DNA from: a virus
IMG/VR virus record: IMGVR_UViG_3300045988_080644
Reading direction: 5' to 3' (one strand)
Length of the DNA stretch: 64,000 nucleotides
Made by a program: the position numbers and the translations under genes
Notes under the pieces: generated by a model
Told to the model about the DNA's origin: nothing
What the model saw: the letters and a program-made list of their open reading frames with translations, nothing else
Databases searched by the model: none
In this document: positions 10,855 to 31,878 of the stretch, in pieces
Layout: each line of letters opens with the position of its first letter
How positions within the stretch are numbered: the stretch's first letter is position 1

Positions 10855-11471
10855 TTTTTATAAATGGCATCAAGAATATCTCTAAAATTAGGATTATCTA
10901 TTACTGCTTGAGCATCTTTTTTATTTTTAAAATAGATGTTATTAGAAATAGTCGTCCAATTATGATCTACTTTATAGATATCGCCGTTATATATAATAAA
11001 ATATTTATATTCATTTTGATCACTCCAGTTTGGCTTCCAATCCCCATTATAATATTTAGCAATATTCATTAGTCTACTTAAAGTAACTAACTTAGAGGCA
11101 TTGCTTTCATTGATAATTATACTCTTACAATTCTTGTCTAGCTTTAAGGTATCTTCAACATCTTCATAAGTAATAGTACTCTGCTTAAATCTAACTATAC
11201 CTTTAGCTAAATCACTATTTTCTAAATCTATCTCCATTCCTTCAGGAATATCAATAGTTAATTGATTATTCTTTATTTCCATATTATTTATTTCTTTAAA
11301 TATTACATTAGTTTTATCAGTTCTTTTAGTATAATCACAAGGACCTAAAAGTTCATTAACTAAGTCACAACAACCATTCTTTATAAAAGCACAACCCTTA
11401 CATGAAAAACCTTTTACTACCTGATAAATTTTACCATTATAAGTAAATATTTCACCTAATTTTCTTTCCAT
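10851..11471 (-). CDS. hypothetical protein (206 aa), Cys-rich N-terminus
   Basis: Track ORF with a CKGCAF..GCCD...GPCD cysteine cluster. Confidence 0.55.
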   Translation of the reverse strand: MERKLGEIFTYNGKIYQVVKGFSCKGCAFIKNGCCDLVNELLGPCDYTKRTDKTNVIFKEINNMEIKNNQLTIDIPEGMEIDLENSDLAKGIVRFKQSTITYEDVEDTLKLDKNCKSIIINESNASKLVTLSRLMNIAKYYNGDWKPNWSDQNEYKYFIIYNGDIYKVDHNWTTISNNIYFKNKKDAQAVIDNPNFRDILDAIYKN

Positions 11472-16019: not shown

Positions 16020-16228
16020 AAAATGTGCCTGAGGGTCGTTAATCCTCTCCTTTCTTAGTCAAGAGAACGTTGCAACTTGCCACTAAGACACACTGTTTTT
16101 GAGTTTTTGTAAGTCCTCCGACTTATTAAAGTTTTCGCATAATTTTGATAAGAATTCTACTTTCACAAGCAAAACTCTTTGAGCCTTATTCAATAATTTA
16201 AAAATTATATAAAATTTAGGATAGAAAG

Positions 16229-16300
16229 GAAATGCGGACAGATTCGAACTGCCGACCTTCTACTCTACGGTAGATGCTCTAACCACTAAGCTACACATTT
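16229..16300 (-). tRNA. tRNA-like gene with a non-canonical 6-nt anticodon loop (isotype unresolved)
   Basis: Good acceptor (AAATGTG/CGCATTT), D arm (GCTT-AGTGGTTA-GAGC) and T arm (GGCAG-TTCGAAT-CTGTC). The perfect anticodon stem TCTAC/GTAGA encloses only CGTAGA; the alternative fold is a 4-bp stem with an 8-nt loop. Confidence 0.5.
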
Positions 16301-18199: not shown

Positions 18200-18243
18200 A
18201 CCAATAAATTAAAACTCATACTACTTTCGCAAGCAGTATGAGT
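18200..18243 (-). terminator. rho-independent terminator after the tRNA-Leu gene
   Basis: 9-bp stem ACTCATACT/AGTATGAGT (18214-18222 / 18235-18243), followed on the reverse strand by UUUUAAUUUAUU. Confidence 0.55.
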
Positions 18244-18373
18244 TAATGTGTAAGTCATTTTATTGACTTATCAACTCAACTACAAGAAATTCATCAATTT
18301 TCACAAATTAATAATTAATATGTCGCTTAGACGGGATTCGAACCCGTAAGACCATTCCTGGTCAAGGGATTTT

Positions 18374-18960
18374 CTTACTACACTTGCTTTTATACAAGCT
18401 AACTTAAATAAAGGGATTCGAACCCTTAATCCTCAAGAGATATTTAATGACGACTTTAGAGGAGATTCCGTCAATCTGCTGCCGTATACCAATTCCGCCA
18501 TATTTAAGTTATTGTAGTCTGGACTATTTTATTACCTTATCAATTAACTTCGAAGTAAGGAATTAGGTTTTACCTCTCTCAATGAGCGTCTCCTTTTTTA
18601 CATAATGCATTACTATTATAACCTTATTACTAAGGATGAAGTCTAAACCATTCCTTTTAATTAACTTAGGTATCTCCTCTATAGTCTCTACACATTTATG
18701 CTGTAACACTCCAATTTACATTTAAGATAGATTAGCGTTCTATCACAATTTAGCTCGTCACCACCAAAACCTATGTCACCATAAGTGAGGCTTCTGTCGC
18801 AAGTTAATTAGATTTCTGAATACTGCTTCTATAATCATTACTCTGCTTCTTACACAGATGCTAACCTTTTTACAATTAGTAATTAACTTGTTTAATTAGG
18901 GAGATTCTACTTCTATTATTTCTAATAGAGCACTCAAATTCACCATTACTGGTGTTCCAA
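18374..18960 (-). ncRNA. group I intron in the anticodon loop of tRNA-Leu(TAA)
   Basis: 587 nt inserted between U34 and A35. The 5' exon ends in U and the intron ends in G. Core elements are R-like GTAGAGACTATAG and S-like AAAATAGTCC (P7 GACTA/TAGTC), P3 candidate ATCTCC/GGAGAT directly 3' of P7, and IGS candidate GAGT opposite exon ACTT. There is no ORF inside. Confidence 0.7.
18402..18509 (-). ncRNA. tRNA-like module nested in the 3' part of the intron
   Basis: A 9-bp bracket ACTTAAATA/TATTTAAGT encloses a GG-containing D-loop-like AATTGGTATA and a consensus T arm AAGGG-TTCGAAT-CCCTT. The central arm is non-canonical and contains CTCTAAA (18455-18461). Confidence 0.45.
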
Positions 18961-19210
18961 AAGTCCCTCGTGTATCCCAGTTTCACCACTAAGCGATAAA
19001 GCAACTAATTATCTGCTAGTTGCCAACAATATTTGGGAAAAAACCAACATGTAATTTATGGGGGTTGGTATTCTTATTTTTCAAACAAATTAAATACGTT
19101 CAACATCATAGTCATATCCAATACCAATGTTTTCTAATAACCAAGATGGATCATCCAATACATAATCATCCGGAACTTCTACTGTTACTTTTAATACTAT
19201 TTTCTTCATA

Positions 19211-19570
19211 TTATAATTGTTCTAAAATATTCTTCGCAATATATAAGGATACTTCTCTAGTAGTATGCTCAGAATCATTAAGTACTAGAAGATATTTATC
19301 TTTATCATCAGTTTTCTTAGTTAATTCAAGTAAATACTTTTTATTAATTAATAAACCTTTAGTTACTACTATATATTCTATACACAATTTCTTAATAACA
19401 GCAGTTAAAGAGCAACCAATAATAAATTTTCTGCAATCTTTAGTTACTATTAGGACATATTTATTCAGTGCCTCTAAACTAACTATATCTTCTATATTTA
19501 TTTGTCGGTACTCAATGCCTTTAAATACAAGAAATGTGTCAGAATCAATTTGTATTGTTTTTATTTCCAT
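19211..19570 (-). CDS. LytTR-like DNA-binding domain protein (tentative)
   Basis: 119-aa ORF whose pattern I.DIVSLEA..KYVLIVTKD..F.....L..V...L......V.K..LIN..Y...L follows the LytTR beta-fold consensus. The antisense track ORF 19020..19583 is rejected. Confidence 0.4.
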   Translation of the reverse strand: MEIKTIQIDSDTFLVFKGIEYRQINIEDIVSLEALNKYVLIVTKDCRKFIIGCSLTAVIKKLCIEYIVVTKGLLINKKYLLELTKKTDDKDKYLLVLNDSEHTTREVSLYIAKNILEQL

Positions 19571-19982: not shown

Positions 19983-19995
19983 TGTTAATGTGTTA
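19983..19995 (-). promoter_or_regulatory. 13-mer TAACACATTAACA, copy 3 of 6
   Basis: Exact TGTTAATGTGTTA, 9 nt upstream of the ATG at 19973. Confidence 0.6.
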
Positions 19996-20162
19996 ATAAT
20001 CTATTTAAATAATAGGCGATTTTCACTGGTTATATTTAAACTATTCCATTGTCCTCAGCTATCTAACGTTCTTTCTCTTTCTAACCCAAATGATTAATTT
20101 TAAGGTAATTACGCTATTTAATAGAGTTACTGAGAGTTGTTTAGTACCTATGTATTAATTAG

Positions 20163-20394: not shown

Positions 20395-20467
20395 GGTCAC
20401 GCTAGGGATTCGAACCCTGTACTGTAGTCTCACAAACTACCGTGTTACCAGTTACACTAGACGGACC
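20395..20467 (-). tRNA. tRNA-His(GTG)-like, imperfect acceptor stem
   Basis: D arm GTGT-AACTGGTA-ACAC, anticodon arm GTAGT-TTGTGAG-ACTAC, T loop TTCGAAT and an extra 5' G typical of His. By eye, 3 of 7 acceptor pairs are mismatched (GTCCGTC vs GCGTGAC). Confidence 0.5.
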
Positions 20468-21052: not shown

Positions 21053-21125
21053 TGGAGACACGTGGAATCGAACCACAATCTCGGAATTTTCAGTCCCGCG
21101 CTCTGACCTTCTAAGCTATATCTCC
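21053..21125 (-). tRNA. tRNA-Phe(GAA)
   Basis: Acceptor GGAGATA/TGTCTCC, anticodon arm CGGGA-CTGAAAA-TTCCG and T arm TGTGG-TTCGATT-CCACG. Confidence 0.8.
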
Positions 21126-21378
21126 ATATGTCTAAGATTTACTTAGACACACCACATTTCTATAAGTAGAATAGTGGTAAGAACTTTGCCCAAATAGGCA
21201 TAACACACTAACAAAATATGATTAATTACAAAAATTCAAATTAAAGTGATAGTGTCTTCTCACATCATGGCTGGTGATTGTAGACTTTCCAATATTGTAA
21301 TAATCTACATACGTGAGGCACTAAGAGAATCATTTTTCTCCCGTTACTTCCCAAATTTGGACGAAATCTCCATAATTA

Positions 21379-21480
21379 GATAGCTAACTAATTACAAAAA
21401 TTAGAGGATTCGAACCCCTGTTTCTATCACTATATTTAAAATAGTTATACTGATTACAGCTTACTAATTAATTAGCTATC
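21379..21480 (-). ncRNA. tRNA-like module clamped by a 16-bp terminal stem
   Basis: GATAGCTAACTAATTA (21379-21394) pairs with TAATTAATTAGCTATC (21465-21480). The clamp encloses a mini hairpin, a 5-bp/7-nt hairpin ACTAT-TTTAAAT-ATAGT and a consensus T arm AGGGG-TTCGAAT-CCTCT. No matching acceptor 5' strand was found. Confidence 0.45.
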
Positions 21481-21742
21481 TTAACTAGTAATTGTTTCAT
21501 ATTAATCCCATTAAATGGGAGTTGCGCAATATTTTGAAACTAAACTTCTCTTCTAATCGACTCTTTACAGCTGATAGATTAGGCAGATAATGTTCTATAC
21601 TTCCTCTGGGAGGAGAGTCTCAATATAACTAACATAAATATCAATTTAAAAGAAAGTTTAGTGGACTTTGAGTGCTAGATATATTAAATAGTACATCCTA
21701 AATAATACTCTAGTTATCCACTAAACTTATCTTTGAAGAAAC
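21481..21742 (-). ncRNA. candidate second group-I-like ribozyme core (boundaries unresolved)
   Basis: ORF-free. It has R-like TTGAGACTCTCC (about 21612-21623) and S-like AAAGAGTCGATT (about 21555-21566) with P7 GACTC/GAGTC, a 12-bp hairpin AAGTTTAGTGGA/TCCACTAAACTT and nested hairpins GTTTCA/TGAAAC and TCCCAT/ATGGGA. It is followed by the clamped tRNA-like module, the same layout as the tRNA-Leu intron. Confidence 0.35.
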
Positions 21743-21771
21743 CTACAACTATTTATCACAAACCATTGTAG
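21743..21771 (-). promoter_or_regulatory. conserved-loop hairpin (d), upstream of the group-I-like element
   Basis: Stem CTACAA/TTGTAG around loop CTATTTATCACAAACCA. The loop is identical to copy (c) while the stem is fully different. Confidence 0.6.
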
Positions 21772-21854
21772 AATTATATTTTGTCGACCTATTTTAATTC
21801 ACAATTATTACAACTTGAAAATATTTTAAATATTTTTGTTGTAACTTGTAGTTG

Positions 21855-21990
21855 TGCTCCCATCCAGATTCAAACTGGAAACCCACAGCTTAGAACTAGA
21901 TAAAGGAGTCGAACCTCAATCTAATTAGATGATTTACAGCTCATTACACTGTATGAAGGCTGTTGCTCTATTCAGTTGAGCTATGGGAGC
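21855..21990 (-). tRNA. interrupted tRNA (Arg-TCT if a 61-nt insert is removed) or chimeric pseudogene
   Basis: Perfect outer cloverleaf parts: acceptor GCTCCCA/TGGGAGC, D arm GCTC-AACTGAATA-GAGC, anticodon stem ACAGC...GCTGT and T arm TCCAG-TTTGAAT-CTGGA. About 68 nt lie between the anticodon stem strands, beginning CTTCATA and ending GTTCTAA, and they contain a second T-arm-like GAGG-TTCGACT-CCTT. Confidence 0.5.
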
Positions 21991-22129
21991 TGCTAATTAT
22001 TAGCATTTTTCTACTAACCTTGCCAAGTGAACTAACTATATAATCAGTTATTTAGAATTGGTAGTTAATAAATGTTAATTTGTAATCAACACTTAAAAAC
22101 TTACCAATTCTTTTATAGGCATAGAGTAA

Positions 22130-22582
22130 TTATAGAGAATTAATTTTCTTCTTTAATTCTCTTATTTCAGCTTTAATACCATTTAATACTTGTTCATAGT
22201 ATTGTCCTGTAACTATGATAACAGCATCTTCATCATTACAGGTAAGCCAATAAGTAAGAGTATGCGTCCATAAACCACAAATATCACCAAGAAACACATC
22301 ATCCATAGACATAGTTGCTATGTTAGAAGTTCTGAACATTCCATATTGAGCTGGACATATTGCAGGATTCCATGCTAAATGCATTGCTCCTAACTGTCTG
22401 TGAATTTTAAAAGTGTCTTCAAGAGTGTGATGAGACATCAATTCACCTTTAAATTTAGTCAGCTGAAGGATTTGATGTTCTATCATATGTTTCTTATCCT
22501 TCTTCTCCTGATTTTTCCGAGCCATAACTCCAACTACAATAAATATAATTAAAGCTAGTAAGGCTATTACTGTTATTACCAT
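22130..22582 (-). CDS. membrane-anchored protein (150 aa)
   Basis: Track ORF with an N-terminal TM helix VITVIALLALIIFIVVGV. Confidence 0.5.
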   Translation of the reverse strand: MVITVIALLALIIFIVVGVMARKNQEKKDKKHMIEHQILQLTKFKGELMSHHTLEDTFKIHRQLGAMHLAWNPAICPAQYGMFRTSNIATMSMDDVFLGDICGLWTHTLTYWLTCNDEDAVIIVTGQYYEQVLNGIKAEIRELKKKINSL

Positions 22583-22596
22583 AATCTAATTAATTA

Positions 22597-22926
22597 TTAC
22601 AATAGAGGTGCTTCTCTATTTTGTTTATACTTATTTCCTATTAACCAATAGTAAAGATACTTATAGTTATTAACTAACTCAATGATTGGATAGTTTCTAA
22701 TATAAATATATTTATAATGGTCTATTACTAACTCACACAAAGCCTTAGCTGGGTTAGTTTTGTATCTCTTCTTCCACTCCTTAGTACAGCATAAATAGTT
22801 AGTAGTCCAAGTATTGGTTTTTCTAACACTTATTCTATTTTTAGGAATTACTGGAAGGACACTATCCTTAACCCAGAAATCTAAAGCTTCAATTAGTAAT
22901 TCGAAATTATCTTTATCGATAATCAT
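22597..22926 (-). CDS. hypothetical protein (109 aa)
   Basis: Track ORF, co-directional. Confidence 0.5.
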   Translation of the reverse strand: MIIDKDNFELLIEALDFWVKDSVLPVIPKNRISVRKTNTWTTNYLCCTKEWKKRYKTNPAKALCELVIDHYKYIYIRNYPIIELVNNYKYLYYWLIGNKYKQNREAPLL

Positions 22927-23082
22927 TCTTACTTAGTCATTTCGGAACCTACAATAGCTACAAATATTAATCCAAATACTATAGCCCAAACAATTCTAAG
23001 AAACTCCATTATTCTTTACTCCTTAGTATTAAAATAATAATAATAGGAATTGCTCCACAAATTATATTTAATAGTGTCATAA

Positions 23083-23481
23083 CTATTTGCCATTAGTTAA
23101 TTTGTAGATATAGTCCCAGATTTCCTGAGGAATATTATTGCCTGTCTCATGCACATAGTCTTTCATATGACACATATTGCCATCTTCAGCAGTCTTAATT
23201 ACTGCTTCAGTAAAAAGCTTAATGTCCTTGAGATTTGGAGTGACAAGAGTGATATTGGTAGAATCTGAAGCACCCATGCCAGCAAGCAGACCCTCAAAAG
23301 CAGTTAGTTTTCCATCCTTGACCTGATCACCAACAGCTCTACTAGTAATACGAGCAGCTATCATAAGGACTTCTTTCTTATCCTCAGTCTTAGTAGCACT
23401 GACACTTTCCATGATGTCATTGTTAACTACCAACACATTGCCAAACAAACCAAAATCGTTTACTTTCTTTGTAAAATCCAT
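23083..23481 (-). CDS. hypothetical protein (132 aa); ORF closed by TAG
   Basis: Track ORF with stop codon TAG (cta at 23083-23085). Confidence 0.5.
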   Translation of the reverse strand: MDFTKKVNDFGLFGNVLVVNNDIMESVSATKTEDKKEVLMIAARITSRAVGDQVKDGKLTAFEGLLAGMGASDSTNITLVTPNLKDIKLFTEAVIKTAEDGNMCHMKDYVHETGNNIPQEIWDYIYKLTNGK

Positions 23482-23619
23482 AATCTTATCTGTTTAATTA
23501 ATTATCTAAAAGTACATAAGTCTTGTCTTATGATTAACCAATTTACTTTCCAAGATGTCAACTATTTATTATACTCTATAGTACTAGAGTGCTATTTTAT
23601 CTTTATTCGTATTTTTATA

Positions 23620-23847
23620 CTATTTACAATTAAGAGAACGTCCATCTACTACACAAGTTCCTTTTAAATCGGAAATTACATAGTTAGTTACACAATTCTC
23701 ATTGTACTGAATAGAAACTACAATGTTTGGTTCAATAGTCATTGTATCCGGTTTAATATCTACACCCATTAACATAGTCTCTACTTGAGATGCAATCTTT
23801 TCTGCTTCTGCTGTTGTCATAGTTGTTCCATAATTAGTAAGTTCCAT
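23620..23847 (-). CDS. hypothetical protein (75 aa); ORF closed by TAG
   Basis: Track ORF with stop codon TAG (cta at 23620-23622). Confidence 0.45.
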   Translation of the reverse strand: MELTNYGTTMTTAEAEKIASQVETMLMGVDIKPDTMTIEPNIVVSIQYNENCVTNYVISDLKGTCVVDGRSLNCK

Positions 23848-23945
23848 AACTTTCTAATTAAATAGTAAAGACCTAACTAAACAATAACTATATAAATAAT
23901 TAAAGTCTAATTAGGTCTCTTGATTATGGAACTTAACAGAAAAAA

Positions 23946-24512
23946 TTACTTCTTTTTCTCCTCAATGAGGAGTTGCATAGCGTGACGAGACTTTTCCATC
24001 ACAAACTCGAGAAGTGTACGGAATGTGTATGGTTTACGATGCCACTTCTTAGGAACATAAGCAAGTGCCATCTCTGCCTGCCACCACATGTTGGCAGTAA
24101 ACTCGTCAAACTTCTCCTCTTCAGCTAACTTAATAGCTTCCTGCATAGCCTTGTAACTATTGTAGTCAAAGGTATCATCACAATCGCTCTTGGTCTTATA
24201 ATCCCAAGAGTCTACCTTACGCTTGCCCCGCTCTTTAGCATTGACAAGCTCATGTTCACACTTGTCAATATATTCCTTAAGCGCATAGATAATGTCATCT
24301 TTGAATAAGTGCAATAATTCTACATCATCAAACTCATGTGGCTTGTAATCACCATTTGAGTTCAAGATGATTTCAGTACGTTGTACACCATTAGCTACCT
24401 CTGTTTCGGTAGTCACTTTGACACCCTCAAATGTCCAAGAAAAAATTCCATTTTTCATTTTGTTGTAATCTAAAAATTGTGAATCTATAAACAGACATAA
24501 TGTCTGTCTCAT
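23946..24512 (-). CDS. hypothetical protein (188 aa)
   Basis: Track ORF, visibly more GC-rich than its neighbours. Confidence 0.55.
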   Translation of the reverse strand: MRQTLCLFIDSQFLDYNKMKNGIFSWTFEGVKVTTETEVANGVQRTEIILNSNGDYKPHEFDDVELLHLFKDDIIYALKEYIDKCEHELVNAKERGKRKVDSWDYKTKSDCDDTFDYNSYKAMQEAIKLAEEEKFDEFTANMWWQAEMALAYVPKKWHRKPYTFRTLLEFVMEKSRHAMQLLIEEKKK

Positions 24513-24678
24513 TATAATTGTGAATTGATACCTAAATACAATCTAACTACGCTTAATTAGACTAACTTTATTGAATGTCTTTATACTTACGGCAAAATCC
24601 TTACGTTAGTTTTAAAACTAGTAGGTTCACGACTTTTCTTAAATTGTTTCATTTTATTACTATTTATATTGTTAATAA

Positions 24679-24888
24679 CTAGGAATTAGCCCATTTAATA
24701 AGCCAATTCCAACCTGTATATTCCTTAAACAATTCTTCGTTCATAAAGGTAGAACAAAGAATACAAAGAGCAAATGCCCCGAAACCCATAAAGAGTGTCA
24801 CAAAGAGTGACATATGGGCAATGTAATCTATACCACTCACATAAGTGATGATATAGAATACTGTAAAGTAAAAATAAAATCTTTTCAT
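24679..24888 (-). CDS. small two-pass membrane protein (69 aa); ORF closed by TAG
   Basis: Track ORF with two hydrophobic helices and stop codon TAG. The 13-mer variant lies 1 nt upstream of its ATG. Confidence 0.5.
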   Translation of the reverse strand: MKRFYFYFTVFYIITYVSGIDYIAHMSLFVTLFMGFGAFALCILCSTFMNEELFKEYTGWNWLIKWANS

Positions 24889-24889
24889 T

Positions 24890-24902
24890 TGTTAATGTGT
24901 TT
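24890..24902 (-). promoter_or_regulatory. 13-mer variant AAACACATTAACA, copy 4 of 6
   Basis: TGTTAATGTGTTT on the forward strand, 1 nt upstream of the ATG at 24888. Confidence 0.5.
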
Positions 24903-24922
24903 AATTATTTTGTTACCAGCTG

Positions 24923-25222
24923 TCAGATCGATACATTATTAGCTAATTTAAATAGAGCAATATCTACTTTAACAATAGACATCTTTCTAATTGAGAACTT
25001 CTCATTAATTACGAGAGACATCAACTTAAATATCTCTGGAGTATATTCTAATCCAGATTCTTTAATAAGCTGATTTACTGCATAATTATGAGATTTTCTA
25101 TTAGCTACTGCTATATTACGATATTTAGCAGCATTGAATTTCCAGTTCTTATGTTCTTTTTCTTTTATCTTATTCTGATATAACTGGAATACCTGAATAA
25201 GTGTTGAACTACCTGTAATCAT
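24923..25222 (-). CDS. hypothetical protein (99 aa)
   Basis: Track ORF, co-directional. Confidence 0.5.
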   Translation of the reverse strand: MITGSSTLIQVFQLYQNKIKEKEHKNWKFNAAKYRNIAVANRKSHNYAVNQLIKESGLEYTPEIFKLMSLVINEKFSIRKMSIVKVDIALFKLANNVSI

Positions 25223-25431
25223 TTTCTGTTAAGTGTGTAATTGGGATAGAGCTGATAACCCACTACCTTAATTAGTATTTTATTGCATAATACTACTAGT
25301 TGCCACATTGGGTGATACTGCAACCATATTTATTTTACAACTCTATCCCTTATTGTTATTTAAATTGTTATTAAAGGGAGCAGTTTAAACTCATGCTCAG
25401 GAGCTCGTCTTAAAACTATGTGCGAATATTG

Positions 25432-25620
25432 TTACTTAACTAAAACATTATAATTATAAAATACTGAATCCATTTCGTCCAACTGATTAGCCTGTATAGA
25501 TATAACTTTTTTCAGCTGTTTGTTGGCTGTGTGACAATTAACTAAATTAATTGACAATACAACTACTGCACTTACTAATACTAACATAATAAGTGCTGTT
25601 ACTTTATTTATCTTATTCAT
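25432..25620 (-). CDS. small membrane-anchored protein (62 aa)
   Basis: Track ORF with an N-terminal TM helix. The 13-mer lies 8 nt upstream of its ATG. Confidence 0.45.
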   Translation of the reverse strand: MNKINKVTALIMLVLVSAVVVLSINLVNCHTANKQLKKVISIQANQLDEMDSVFYNYNVLVK

Positions 25621-25628
25621 AATTTTGT

Positions 25629-25641
25629 TGTTAATGTGTTA
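25629..25641 (-). promoter_or_regulatory. 13-mer TAACACATTAACA, copy 5 of 6
   Basis: Exact TGTTAATGTGTTA, 8 nt upstream of the ATG at 25620. Confidence 0.6.
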
Positions 25642-25702
25642 AAATATTATACTTATGTTATTTATTCATAGATAGCTAATAACGTACAACTGTTACTAGC
25701 TA

Positions 25703-25747
25703 TTTCGTCCAGTCTCATCAGTATGAATTTTATAGTCTCCTGGCTGA
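25703..25747 (-). promoter_or_regulatory. conserved ~46-nt upstream element, copy 1
   Basis: TTTCGTCCAGTCTCATCAGTATGAATTTTATAGTCTCCTGGCTGA aligns at roughly three quarters identity with 26700-26746. Both copies sit about 85-90 nt upstream of a start codon, and a non-conserved hairpin lies between element and ATG. Confidence 0.5.
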
Positions 25748-26275
25748 CTTATAAATTACCTGTCTTTCCAGGTTGTCAGTTGTCTCTCCAACAGTCTAAT
25801 ACACAAGACGCGCTGCTTGTGCTCAGCTATGTAAGACGTACCGCTCACACTCGGCTAATTAAACAATTTCTCTTACTCCTTGTTTAAGGGAAGCCTCTCT
25901 TTTAGCACCGAGGTTATCGCTTTAAAAATGTAGAGTCCTTCAACACTTACTATCCCCTCTACTAACTGTCTTTACGCTTTCTTACTTCTAAAGTCTTTTT
26001 AATACTTTAGTTCTACCAGTAATACTTTCAATGTGTTACGACGCGCTAAATACCTCCTGCACAAACCTATAAAGGATAAACACCCGTTCTACTATTTAGC
26101 TATATACTAGGATGATTTTTCAACTTAATTTAAAACATATTAGATAGGAACAGGTTTTACACAATACCCTGTATTACTTTCCGACTGTAGTACGGCAACC
26201 TATAGCTAGATATATCCTAGCCAGATTTTTTAGATTAAACACAGCAGTTTATACACTTACTCAGGTGTTTTTAAT

Positions 26276-26611
26276 TTATCGATGAATATCAATATCCATA
26301 TCAGATCCAGGAACTCTTAAACTTATTACATAGTTAATGTAATTAGTCGCTACTATGATAGCTACTTTATTTGGAGTATCCACGATATCTAAGTATCCTG
26401 GATATGGATAATTTTCTCTAGAATAATTAGCAATATTGTTGATAACATTTGCTAAATGTTTCTTAATATTCTCTTTTGGGAGTCTATTGGATATTTGTGT
26501 AATAACACAGTTCATCCATAGATCATTTGTTAGAAGAGCTTTCTTTGCTTCTTCAAATATGTCTACTGTGTTAATTACAGTAGTAATAAAGTTTTTTAAA
26601 TTCTTTTCCAT
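26276..26611 (-). CDS. hypothetical protein (111 aa)
   Basis: Track ORF. The 13-mer lies 2 nt upstream of its ATG. Confidence 0.5.
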   Translation of the reverse strand: MEKNLKNFITTVINTVDIFEEAKKALLTNDLWMNCVITQISNRLPKENIKKHLANVINNIANYSRENYPYPGYLDIVDTPNKVAIIVATNYINYVISLRVPGSDMDIDIHR

Positions 26612-26613
26612 AT

Positions 26614-26626
26614 TGTTAATGTGTTA
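26614..26626 (-). promoter_or_regulatory. 13-mer TAACACATTAACA, copy 6 of 6
   Basis: Exact TGTTAATGTGTTA, 2 nt upstream of the ATG at 26611. Confidence 0.6.
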
Positions 26627-26699
26627 TTTTTACTTATTTTAGTTCATGGACACAGAGTCATTACTAATACTATCCAGTGATTAATAATTTTCCTCTGTG

Positions 26700-26746
26700 T
26701 TTCGTCTAGGTCTCGTCAACATGAATGTTATACTCTCCCTAGCTGA
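26700..26746 (-). promoter_or_regulatory. conserved ~46-nt upstream element, copy 2
   Basis: TTTCGTCTAGGTCTCGTCAACATGAATGTTATACTCTCCCTAGCTGA, paired with 25703-25747. Confidence 0.5.
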
Positions 26747-26961
26747 GTTTTATTTTTGCATAAGCCATTATTAGTTAACCTATACACTAAAAGGTTTTTA
26801 ATTCTGATTTAATTATGACTATAGTTTATATTTTAGTGAAACATTAAAGTGCGAGTTACTTATGCACCCAATGTTTGAAAATTGACTTGTAATGTGAAAG
26901 TAGTAAAAACCACTCTCCCACAACAGCGCCACCTTGCAGCCGTCTCGATTGTGTTATCCGC

Positions 26962-27195
26962 TTATGTTTTGCATAAATAACACTGTCTGACTGAATATCG
27001 GCGTTCTCCGTTTCTAAGTACTTCTAATAGTTCTAATTGCCACCAACAATCACAAGCTGGATACTTGGTGATGTCTTCTCGAACTTTATAATACTTATAC
27101 TCAGAGACTAATAACCTTGAAGCCTTTTTATGAGCTTTTACAGTTATTAGTTTCCGAGATAGAGGATTAAGATGGCGACCTTTGTAGATTACCAT
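26962..27195 (-). CDS. hypothetical protein (77 aa), Cys-containing
   Basis: Track ORF with CDCW...CYLC cysteine pairs. Confidence 0.45.
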   Translation of the reverse strand: MVIYKGRHLNPLSRKLITVKAHKKASRLLVSEYKYYKVREDITKYPACDCWWQLELLEVLRNGERRYSVRQCYLCKT

Positions 27196-27205
27196 CTTAG
27201 CTTAC

Positions 27206-27772
27206 TTATGCTACCAGGTCATACTTGAACAAAGCCTTATCAATGAGCTTTGATGTGTCTTGTACACCATCCTTGAAACCAGTAGTCTTGTACATAACCT
27301 TTGAACTTACCTTGACTCTTTTGCCAGCCAAAAGTTCAACACCCTTCTGAGTATCACTCTTAATGATGTTACCGTTAGCATCGAGATCAGACTGACCCCT
27401 TACCTTCAAGAACTCAGTAACAGCTGTACCTTCTGGATAGAGTACATCTGATGTACGATATGGTTTACCTGCACTATCCTCAGCCCATACAAACAATGGA
27501 TTCTGGAAAGTTGTCGGGAACCAATTAATTGAACGCTTAGTTCCATCAGGTGCTTCCACTTCGATGACCATGAACTCATAGTCATTACCGTTGAATGTTC
27601 TGCTACCGATGCGGTCTTTCATCTCCTCCAAAGTTGGGAAGATCAAGATATCGCCCTCATTGAGAGCAGCACCGCCGTCAAATACAGGTTTCATACCTGA
27701 TGTGAACACTGTTAAACCCATCTTAATTGCACCATCTGCCTTATTGGCATTGATTCTTTCAATAACTGTCAT
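27206..27772 (-). CDS. hypothetical protein (188 aa), GC-rich
   Basis: Track ORF with clearly higher GC and non-AT-biased codons. No motif recognised. Confidence 0.6.
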   Translation of the reverse strand: MTVIERINANKADGAIKMGLTVFTSGMKPVFDGGAALNEGDILIFPTLEEMKDRIGSRTFNGNDYEFMVIEVEAPDGTKRSINWFPTTFQNPLFVWAEDSAGKPYRTSDVLYPEGTAVTEFLKVRGQSDLDANGNIIKSDTQKGVELLAGKRVKVSSKVMYKTTGFKDGVQDTSKLIDKALFKYDLVA

Positions 27773-27980
27773 TTTTAATTCTCCTATTGTTTAATTATGT
27801 AGTCTCTTACTATACATTAAGTATGCAAGATTTGCTACCACAACACTTATACTTGTTGCTAAGTTACAATAGGTGCTTATACACGGCTATTTTCTACCTA
27901 TTTATGGCTATTTTTATGAGAGGAGAAAATAGAGGGAAGAGTTGGGGGAGAAGTTAGAGAAGATTTTAAGAAGAAAAGCT

Positions 27981-28029
27981 AATTAAAAAATAAGGGCTAA
28001 CCCAAGGAAGTTATTTCCCTAGGTTAGCC
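27981..28029 (-). terminator. rho-independent terminator after gene 28034..28219
   Basis: Stem GGCTAACC/GGTTAGCC (27995-28002 / 28022-28029), followed on the reverse strand by UUAUUUUUUAAUU. Confidence 0.6.
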
Positions 28030-31672: not shown

Positions 31673-31716
31673 TAACTTAAATACACATTTGGCTAGTTTT
31701 GATAACTAGCTAATAT

Positions 31717-31788
31717 TCTCTTATGGTGTAATGGTCAGCACAGAAGACTCTAAATCTTTTAGTCAGGGTTCGAATCCTTGTGAGAGAA
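31717..31788 (+). tRNA. amber suppressor tRNA, anticodon CTA (reads TAG; probably charged with Gln)
   Basis: 72-nt cloverleaf with acceptor TCTCTTA/TGAGAGA (U1-A72), D region GTGTAATGGTCAGCAC, anticodon arm GAAGA-CTCTAAA-TCTTT (CTA at 31750-31752) and T arm CAGGG-TTCGAAT-CCTTG. Its D region resembles the phage's own tRNA-Gln(TTG). Confidence 0.85.
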
Positions 31789-31878
31789 GAATAGCAATAG
31801 TAGAAACCTCCACGTGGTGCTATTCGGGTAATGCTAATTCTACTTTAAAAAATGATTTAATTATAAAAGATATGTATT

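Follow-up and report, generated by a model that had tools for sequence, protein, structure and literature searches.

Within the tRNA genes of bacteria, group I introns have a classical insertion site in tRNA-Leu(UAA). This site, termed Leu.3Ug in a survey of bacterial genomes and no others (Williams 2020), reads CUU/a...g/AAAA, where slashes mark the splice sites, and the trnL(UAA) intron that occupies it in cyanobacteria and plastids is listed as a member of subgroup IC3. For phages, Hausner et al. (2014) noted that all introns then known lie in protein-coding genes, despite the many tRNA genes that phages carry. Here we describe a 64-kb stretch of phage DNA (IMG/VR virus record IMGVR_UViG_3300045988_080644, 64,000 nucleotides, hereafter called the window) in which the minus-strand segment 18960-18374 splits a tRNA-Leu(UAA) gene between U34 and A35. 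We conclude with high confidence that this segment is a group I intron and that it would be spliced by the group I mechanism.

The element shares many features with the trnL(UAA) intron of cyanobacteria and plastids. Both interrupt the same gene at the same site (CUU/AAAA), follow a U at the 5′ splice site, end in G, use a guide that pairs with both exon ends, and have a P2 hairpin, and both lack an open reading frame (ORF) and a P5abc extension. This likeness is one of site and features. The initial annotation of the locus had also named the cyanobacterial and plastid insertion point, and U34/A35 indeed matches the CUU/a...g/AAAA site of Williams (2020). In contrast to its cellular counterpart, however, the intron in the window resides in a tailed gut phage that reads TAG as a sense codon, and it measures 587 nucleotides (nt) rather than ∼250 nt, with five peripheral insertions and a nested tRNA-like element. 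Moreover, its close relatives occupy other tRNAs and a protein-coding gene.

The Azoarcus pre-tRNA-Ile intron, an IC3 member for which a crystal structure is available, is likewise a small intron in the anticodon loop of a tRNA. It contains a tertiary contact between L2 and P8. The phage family to which the window intron belongs carries an invariant GAAA loop on P2 and a motif in P8 (CCUAAG/UAUGG) that resembles the 11-nt tetraloop receptor. Because both the invariant loop and the receptor-like sequence are present, an L2-P8 contact is also likely in the window intron. Unlike the Azoarcus intron, the phage element uses a different insertion site and host tRNA, its L5 is a GUGA tetraloop, and its P9 is a three-way junction with a cargo-bearing loop.

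Phages are well known to harbor group I ribozymes. As does the window intron, those of T4 (td, nrdB and nrdD), Twort and SPO1 have R and S elements, and some of them are mobilized by homing endonucleases. Unlike the window intron, however, all of these reside in protein-coding genes. Most of these classical introns fall into subgroup IA and possess P7.1 and P7.2, whereas in the window intron the 3′ strand of P3 directly follows P7. Closer counterparts are found in two other groups of phages. Primase genes of crAss-like phages contain a close homologue with the same guide and the same target (ACUU/AAAA), and the Lak-B and Lak-C megaphages carry a homologue in tRNA-Leu(UAA).

Reports on crAss-like phages (Yutin et al. 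2021, PMC7886860) and on Jug phages (PMC12880540), in their passages on introns, describe group I introns in protein-coding genes and none in tRNA genes, the introns having been found through endonuclease domains or covariance models. Devoto et al. (2019, PMC6784885), who ran tRNAscan in its eukaryotic mode, observed “enigmatic” short introns in Lak tRNAs that Rfam left unclassified, counted one tRNA intron (in tRNA-Tyr) per Lak-B genome, and predicted that one intron itself encodes a tRNA. Given this count, the group I introns in Lak tRNA-Leu(UAA) genes were apparently missed. Our full-text search of the literature, whose coverage is partial and which does not prove novelty, returned no paper that describes phage tRNA genes with group I introns.

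A phage tRNA-Leu(UAA) gene interrupted after U34

Both exons lie on the minus strand. The 5′ exon (18995-18961) provides the 5′ strand of the acceptor stem, the D arm and the 5′ strand of the anticodon stem, and ends in C32-U33-U34. The 3′ exon (18373-18323) begins with A35-A36 and provides the remainder of the anticodon arm, the long variable arm, the T arm, the 3′ strand of the acceptor stem and the discriminator A. When the exons are joined in silico, ARAGORN recognizes an 86-nt type II tRNA-Leu(UAA), with or without flanking sequence, that has a 7-bp acceptor stem, D, anticodon and T arms, a long variable arm, a discriminator A and an anticodon loop of CUUAAAA. The initial annotation was therefore correct in its exon coordinates and its 86-nt cloverleaf, and the spliced sequence passes as tRNA-Leu, the check that it had proposed, when judged by ARAGORN. 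Applied to the genomic sequence in intron mode, the same program recovers the same gene with a 587-nt intron directly after U34, while in a run on the window without the intron option it does not call the split gene. An intronless tRNA-Leu(UAA) gene from the crAss-like phage cr273_1 is colinear with the two exons across their junction (GAGGGACTT/AAAATCCCTTGACCAG).

The 587-nt intron (18960-18374) is supported by ARAGORN, by covariation, by a profile search and by homologues. Its 5′ splice site is preceded by ...ACUU, and its 3′ end reads ...GUAGUAAG with the terminal G (omega-G) at 18374, in keeping with the earlier observation that the element starts after a U and ends in G. The absence of an ORF, and hence of a homing endonuclease, is also borne out, as the longest open frame on either strand spans 65 codons even when TAG is taken as sense. 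Neither transposase ORFs nor terminal repeats are present in the intron. The segment does not conform to an intron of the bulge-helix-bulge (BHB) type, since it is inserted at 34/35 rather than 37/38, is 587 nt long, and yielded no BHB motif.

A terminator-like hairpin followed by a T run lies ∼80 nt downstream of the 3′ exon (18213-18244, minus strand), and a second, similar hairpin with a T run was read from the sequence upstream of the split gene (∼19040-19075). With such hairpins on both sides, the split tRNA-Leu gene looks like a transcription unit of its own.

Conserved fold and covariation among relatives

To describe the fold, we carried the Rfam structure line from two compact relatives, L069 and L074 (L numbers are our labels for the loci and contigs compared), onto the family, trimmed variable insertions, and aligned 29 distinct members (alignment A2). 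The explicit structure consists of P1, P10, P2, P3, P4, P5, P5a, outer P6, P7, P8, P9, P9a and P9b and comprises 62 base pairs. Across the 29 relatives, 93.5% of the cells are standard-paired, compared with 34-46% when the 3′ partners are slid by 1-3 columns. Compensatory, two-sided changes occur in 34 of the 62 pairs, and none of 500 shuffles reached any of the observed measures. The core has the topology P3-[P4-P5-P6]-P7-P3′-P8-P7′, including the P3/P7 pseudoknot. Covariation is strong in P2, P5a, P8 and P9b. In P1, 27 of the 28 relatives keep the U.G wobble at the splice site and covariation is seen in the remaining three pairs, while the terminal G is kept in all aligned relatives save one shifted row (L053). 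The core of the window intron matches the family consensus throughout, including the U.G wobble, the guide, P3, P4, the bulged A of P7 and the terminal G.

The guide sequence changes along with the exons that it contacts. In tRNA-Leu and primase introns, the guide UUU-GAGU pairs with ACUU/AAA, and in tRNA-Lys introns the guide UAA-GAGUG pairs with CACUU/UUA. Such coordinated change is a requirement of the group I mechanism. It is also the expected product of reverse splicing into new sites, for which it constitutes circumstantial evidence.

Read from its 5′ end on the minus strand, the window intron first shows a small hairpin in the P1 loop (CACCAGUAAUGGUG, 18954-18941), which is variable or missing in relatives. 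The internal guide sequence UUUGAGUGC follows (18938-18930); its GAGU pairs with exon ACUU to form P1 and its UUU with the AAA at the start of the 3′ exon to form P10, as the covariation analysis indicates. The P2 hairpin CUAUUA-GAAA-UAAUAG (18928-18913) shows compensatory changes in five of its six pairs, and its GAAA tetraloop (L2) is invariant in A2. The 5′ strand of P3, UCUCC (18904-18900), is paired in 100% of cases with all five pairs covarying, and leads into J3/4 (CUAAUU). Between J3/4 and P4 lies an 89-nt hairpin (18889-18801) with a 10-bp closing stem (AAGUUAAUUA/UAAUUAACUU). This module is absent from the Lak introns, from L014 and from compact introns; one primase intron and some of the tRNA-Leu relatives have it as well, and some long forms carry other inserts at this position.

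The P4-P5 domain (18800-18753) is formed by P4 (CGACA/UGACG, with a conserved A.A mismatch), P5 (GCC/GGU) and P5a (CUUAUG-GUGA-CAUAGG), and the Rfam alignment of L069 and L094 has the same P4 with a purine-purine mismatch. The P6 region (18752-18692) contains two small hairpins (GAUAG/CUAUC and UGUAA/UUACA) and is followed by J6/7 (AUAAAUGU). Its outer C-G pair is invariant, its interior varies across the family, and the inner helices are proposed from few variants. The 5′ strand of P7, G[A]GACUAU with a bulged A (18688-18681), forms the core of the R element and aligns to P7 of Rfam Intron_gpI in L069 and L074. It is succeeded by the 3′ strand of P3, GGAGA (18677-18673), which closes the P3/P7 pseudoknot. 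P8 (18672-18533) has a base of UACC/GGUA in which three of four pairs covary, flanks of CCUAAG ... UAAGG that match the motif of the 11-nt GAAA-tetraloop receptor (UAUGG in the A2 consensus), and a distal extension of ∼120 nt. The 3′ strand of P7, AUAGUCC (18527-18521), forms the core of the S element, as identified from the covariation set and a scan for S motifs.

In the P9 domain (18518-18377), a closing stem (ACUACA/UGUAGU) surrounds P9a (AACUUAA/UUAAGUU) and P9b (GCUUGU-AUAAAA-GCAAGU), and the intron then terminates in AAG. Among the compensatory changes here, a C-G pair of P9 becomes U-A and a G-C pair of P9b becomes A-U. The R-like sequence GUAGAGACUAUAG and the S-like sequence AAAAUAGUCC of the initial annotation are present where it had placed them, and these elements, along with its assignments of P7, of P3 (AUCUCC/GGAGAU) and of a guide GAGU opposite exon ACUU, are now backed by comparative data.

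Relative to a compact core, the window intron thus carries five additions: the P1-loop hairpin, the 89-nt hairpin (18889-18801), a branched P6, ∼120 nt of distal P8, and cargo in the P9a loop. Since insertion modules recur among relatives in varied combinations, we regard these introns as mosaics.

Homology to recognized group I introns

Compact relatives of 205-250 nt score 56.0 bits (L094), 50.5 bits (L069) and 49.1 bits (L074) with the Rfam model for group I introns (RF00028, Intron_gpI), for which the cut-off is 50. These compact forms, which are recognized or nearly so, carry the same AAAUAGUCCAGACNACAA block as the window intron and have R, S and P9 motifs in common with it. We also built a profile hidden Markov model from seven compact members alone, with no long form among them. 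A single locus in the 64-kb window is matched by this profile, in three pieces that keep the order and orientation of the profile: 18943-18891 (E = 1.5e-5), 18797-18645 (E = 7.6e-17) and 18575-18500 (E = 2.5e-7). Thus, among the homologues of the window intron are sequences that count as group I introns under the curated model. Matches to R and S motifs elsewhere in the window (for example, at 23782 and 19342-19399) were rejected as family members, being chance matches inside coding sequence.

An intron family in phage tRNA and primase genes

A sensitive BLAST search of GenBank phages with the interior of the intron matches the Prevotella megaphages Lak-B1 to B9 and Lak-C1. It also matches the gap between two coding sequences annotated as “DNA primase” in the crAss-like IAS virus, as well as the corresponding gap in cr116_1. 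These primase introns are 72-95% identical to the window intron in core blocks, and the primase reading frame is restored exactly across the site AAACTT/AAAATTTACC. Exact-pattern scans of IMG/VR with the P7/P3′ block and with the P7′/P9 block returned 25 and 92 loci, respectively. In ∼50 of the scanned loci the motif lies inside a split tRNA gene, as judged by intron-aware ARAGORN with hosts assigned after correction of obvious mis-parses. Besides the primase gene of crAss-like phages, the hosts are tRNA-Leu(UAA) (ACUU/AAAA), tRNA-Lys(UUU) (CACUU/UUAA), tRNA-Arg(UCU) (UCUU/CUAA) and tRNA-Ile(UAU) (UCUU/AUAA), and in tRNA hosts the intron follows U34 in every case. Members of the family range from 205 to ∼780 nt, and near-identical long forms occur in several different phage contigs (L013, L023 and L026). 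When a core pattern of 19 bases was scanned once against GTDB genomes in search of bacterial homologues, it matched only 4 contigs, all of metagenome-assembled origin, of which at least L035, with two such split tRNAs, looks phage-like. The initial annotation had considered a trnL(UAA) intron unfamiliar in a phage of this kind. The intron is not isolated, however, but belongs to a family with a wide distribution across phage tRNA genes, Lak megaphages and crAss-like primases.

Some members of the family are associated with endonuclease genes. Related tRNA introns of 600-780 nt (L039, L043, L050, L055, L057, L078, L089 and L091) contain ORFs of 157-182 codons. The four ORFs that were scanned (L039, L043, L050 and L078) match HNH endonuclease families, with those of L043 and L050 (Pfam HNH_3) scoring above the Pfam cut-off, and in cr116_1 an HNH gene directly follows the split primase. 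An empty site is provided by MT835539.1 (L152), the closest GenBank relative, which shares blocks with the window both upstream and downstream. An uninterrupted, sequence-divergent tRNA-Leu(UAA) gene stands at the syntenic site of this phage (1367-1451), with the same promoter-like block (ATATTGTTRGCAACTAGCAGAYAATTAGTTGC) upstream.

The tRNA-Leu(UAA) gene of Lak-B1 (L001, MK250020.1, 1153-1896) contains two group I-like introns. The first, of 311 nt (1173-1483, with P1 GGU/GCC and P10 GUGU/ACAC), interrupts the D loop, an unusual position for a group I intron in a tRNA, and the second, of 348 nt (1497-1844), interrupts the anticodon loop. Removal of both leaves a clean 85-nt tRNA-Leu(UAA).

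A tRNA-like RNA nested in the P9a loop

The loop of P9a in the window intron contains a tRNA-like element (18507-18403, minus strand; 33.1 bits with the Rfam tRNA model) that the initial annotation did not mention. Its acceptor stem, D arm and T arm resemble those of a tRNA, and a conserved, probably pseudoknotted domain replaces the anticodon arm. Related RNAs of ∼104-131 nt occur at at least 57 loci (for example, L004 1494-1597). Most of these are free-standing genes, which in crAss-like contigs usually lie 9 nt upstream of a suppressor tRNA(CUA). Within this RNA family the acceptor and T stems covary freely. In the central domain, helix H1 (GACG/CGUC) becomes GACA/UGUC in L012, as found by manual covariation analysis, and helix H2, which crosses H1, occurs as GCCC/GGGU, CCUC/GAGG, GCUC/GAGU, ACCC/GGGU or GCCC/GGGC. 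These variants suggest that H1 and H2 probably form a pseudoknot. No Rfam family fits the tRNA-like RNA beyond the weak tRNA match, and RNAalifold returned no convincing central fold. We also considered the element as a real tRNA and rejected this reading; ARAGORN interprets it differently from copy to copy (as Leu-UAA for the window copy, with an intron of 25 nt, and as Val-GAC for that of cr60_1, with an intron of 16 nt).

The nested copy in the window has UCU at a position where 23 other copies have GCG, and the nested copies of L011, L023 and L013 bear deletions or mismatches that free copies lack. The passenger therefore looks to be in decay. In Lak introns P9a is a plain hairpin, and thus cargo is dispensable for the intron; other relatives carry unrelated inserts and different structured cargos at this position. 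The tRNA-Leu introns of L010, L024, L025 and L029 have another conserved P9a cargo of ∼65 nt (AAAAGAACAAAAGYGYCUGAAUAGUUCAAGAUGUGRCRCC...GACGAGAAC). Downstream of tRNA-Leu genes in L029, L097, L118 and L145, apparently free copies of the window-type tRNA-like RNA retain P9a and P9b flanks and run into the final bases of a tRNA-Leu 3′ exon. Such copies resemble leftovers from the deletion of tRNA-Leu genes that contained an intron, which would point to recombination between intron variants.

The host phage

The window represents an AT-rich tailed phage (∼31% G+C) that reads TAG as sense. ORFs of at least 250 amino acids number 17 when TAG is translated, compared to 6 with the standard code, and the window contains 248 in-frame TAG codons versus 231 CAA plus CAG codons. 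A gene for a suppressor tRNA(CUA) is located on the plus strand at 31716-31789. The large terminase is 27-29% identical to Crassvirales proteins and 43-48% identical to those of unclassified human-gut phage contigs. TTA accounts for 486 of 791 leucine codons (61%), and there is no other tRNA-Leu in the 64-kb window. Hence, the phage should benefit from a functional tRNA-Leu(UAA).

Proposed splicing pathway and alternative explanations

We regard the group I intron at the classical trnL(UAA) site of this phage gene as real and its capacity to splice as very probable. The undamaged exons, the homology, the conserved and covarying fold and the exon-matched guides are observed, whereas actual splicing, how fast it runs and how the intron moves are inferred. 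The precursor would be transcribed as a ∼0.8-kb unit, in which the guide UUUGAGU would pair with the end of the 5′ exon (ACUU, with the U.G wobble) to create P1. Free guanosine bound in P7 would attack the 5′ splice site, and the same guide would hold the start of the 3′ exon (AAA) in P10. The terminal G (18374) would then take the place of the free G, and ligation of the exons would yield the 86-nt tRNA-Leu(UAA), with the junction GAGGGACUU/AAAAUCCC. The mature tRNA would read UUA. This mechanism is ordinary; the novelty lies in the host context, in how broad the family is and in the cargo-bearing P9a loop. The window intron is a long form of a compact core of 205-250 nt that occurs in many phage tRNA genes, with hairpins or cargo inserted at five places (P1 loop, after J3/4, P6, P8 and P9a loop). 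Mobility is suggested by the presence of the same intron in primase genes, by the empty site in MT835539.1 and by the HNH endonucleases of larger relatives. Persistence and spread without an endonuclease gene probably reflect recombination between co-infecting phages. Movement to new sites that match the 4-6-nt guide might proceed by reverse splicing, or be aided by the HNH endonucleases in or beside relatives.

Several observations weigh against a functional group I intron at this locus. RF00028 has no match in the window at the gathering threshold, nor at E ≤ 10 on the 1.1-kb segment 18100-19200, and it also fails to match the Lak and primase homologues. The initial annotation had proposed an Intron_gpI search as a check and held that the lack of a significant hit would refute its claim, and this lack is indeed what the search returned. 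We conclude, however, that the miss is a false negative caused by the five large peripheral insertions, and that the Intron_gpI test is not valid for the long form, because compact homologues that share its core motifs reach, or almost reach, the cut-off of the model and because covariation supports the fold. Within the fold, P7 (G[A]GACUAU/AUAGUC-C) is invariant in all 29 sequences, and thus its support comes from sequence identity and not from covariation. P4 contains the conserved A.A mismatch, the outer P6 pair (G.U) does not form in 11 of the 29 relatives, and the P8 receptor motif of the window reads UAAGG rather than UAUGG, a variant common to L012, L024, L029 and L098. In addition, folding could be slowed or led astray by insertions that sum to ∼340 nt, RNase P or RNase Z could be drawn to the nested tRNA-like element and cut the precursor, and, with 64 kb of the genome visible, a second intact tRNA-Leu(UAA) could be encoded elsewhere.

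Some of these points would be expected if splicing had been lost, such that the tRNA-Leu gene is a pseudogene and the phage depends on a tRNA from its host or from another phage. The missing Rfam match, the five insertions, the UAAGG variant, the lack of an endonuclease and the decay of nested cargo in several relatives would all suit a dead group I intron. Nonetheless, the core elements are intact and identical to the family consensus, the exons are undamaged, and near-identical long forms persist in L013, L023 and L026. The insertions are confined to loops and junctions that tolerate them across the family, and TTA is the dominant leucine codon of the phage. We consequently view loss of splicing as improbable. 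It is far less probable still that the insertion does not splice itself at all, and instead reflects disruption by a mobile element, an intron of the BHB type that is removed by proteins, or gene halves joined in trans. In favor of such readings, Rfam could not classify the Lak tRNA introns of Devoto et al. (2019, PMC6784885), and the tRNA-Arg(UCU) gene of the window itself (21854-21990) has an insertion of 62 nt that is far too short for a group I intron. However, insertion at 34/35 rather than 37/38, without a BHB motif, does not agree with protein-mediated removal, and the segment has no transposase ORFs or terminal repeats. Moreover, the group I core, the pairing of guide and exons, and the terminal G are conserved and covary, Intron_gpI recognizes homologues, and the primase homologues restore the reading frame exactly at AAACTT/AAAATTTACC.

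A further possibility grants that the intron is functional and adds that the phage puts it to use, either as a timing device, with splicing conditions setting the supply of tRNA-Leu(UAA) and thereby the translation of UUA-rich phage genes, or as a carrier from which RNase P and RNase Z release the tRNA-like RNA. The tRNA-like RNA is a conserved stand-alone gene at no fewer than 57 phage loci, usually just 9 nt upstream of a suppressor tRNA(CUA). This phage decodes TAG as sense and carries a suppressor tRNA of its own, and different structured cargos occupy P9a among relatives. Yet damage to the nested copies (L011, L023 and L013, and UCU in the window as opposed to GCG in 23 others), as well as the plain P9a hairpin of Lak introns, which makes cargo dispensable, runs counter to such a role, and we think it unlikely. 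A broader proposal, somewhat less doubtful but still speculative, is that a family of phage-tRNA introns moves among the anticodon loops of tRNA-Leu, tRNA-Lys, tRNA-Arg and tRNA-Ile and primase mRNA by matches to a 4-6-nt guide. P9a might serve this family as a cargo bay that spreads small RNAs, with the tRNA-like RNA perhaps being released by RNase P and RNase Z and perhaps aiding the reading of TAG as sense.

If guide-matched movement does occur, it would be the clearest natural case yet of site switching by reverse splicing. Because the tRNA and mRNA sites are alike in their match to the guide alone, this long-debated route becomes testable. For the self-splicing intron that we favor at the tRNA-Leu(UAA) site, the consequences are broader than one phage. 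With relatives in dozens of gut-phage and megaphage contigs, the 2014 generalization that phage group I introns are confined to protein-coding genes is overturned. Standard tRNA finders and Rfam both miss the split genes, which amounts to a blind spot in annotation, and tRNA counts for phages, Lak megaphages included, are therefore too low. The family also raises the question, relevant to intron origins, of whether phages carry tRNA introns between bacteria.

Other RNA features of the window and of related contigs

The insertion in the tRNA-Arg(UCU) gene noted above (21854-21990, minus strand) follows C32 and contains a T-arm-like sequence (GAGGTTCGACTCCTT); the gene is called by the intron mode of ARAGORN alone. 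The insertion resembles the “enigmatic” tRNA introns of Lak phages. Two further minus-strand loci are tRNA candidates. At 16228-16300, ARAGORN calls a tRNA with an undetermined two-base anticodon that scores 52 bits with the Rfam tRNA model, and at 20395-20466 the same model gives 35.7 bits with no call by ARAGORN. Just downstream of tRNA-Gln(UUG), a 161-nt segment (19992-20152) is 96% identical to sequences in the Lak-A and Lak-C1 genomes, and its predicted fold is no better than that of shuffled sequence (z = 0.36).

A permissive Rfam scan of 21100-28000 revealed two hammerhead ribozymes and no further intron. Both hammerheads are of the RAGATH-1 type, lie ∼1 kb apart on the minus strand (25666-25750 and 26644-26749), and score 81.3 and 69.7 bits, respectively, relative to a gathering score of 56.3. 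In the related phage contig L047, a Hatchet ribozyme (11311-11434, 103.5 bits) lies near the intron-bearing tRNA genes.

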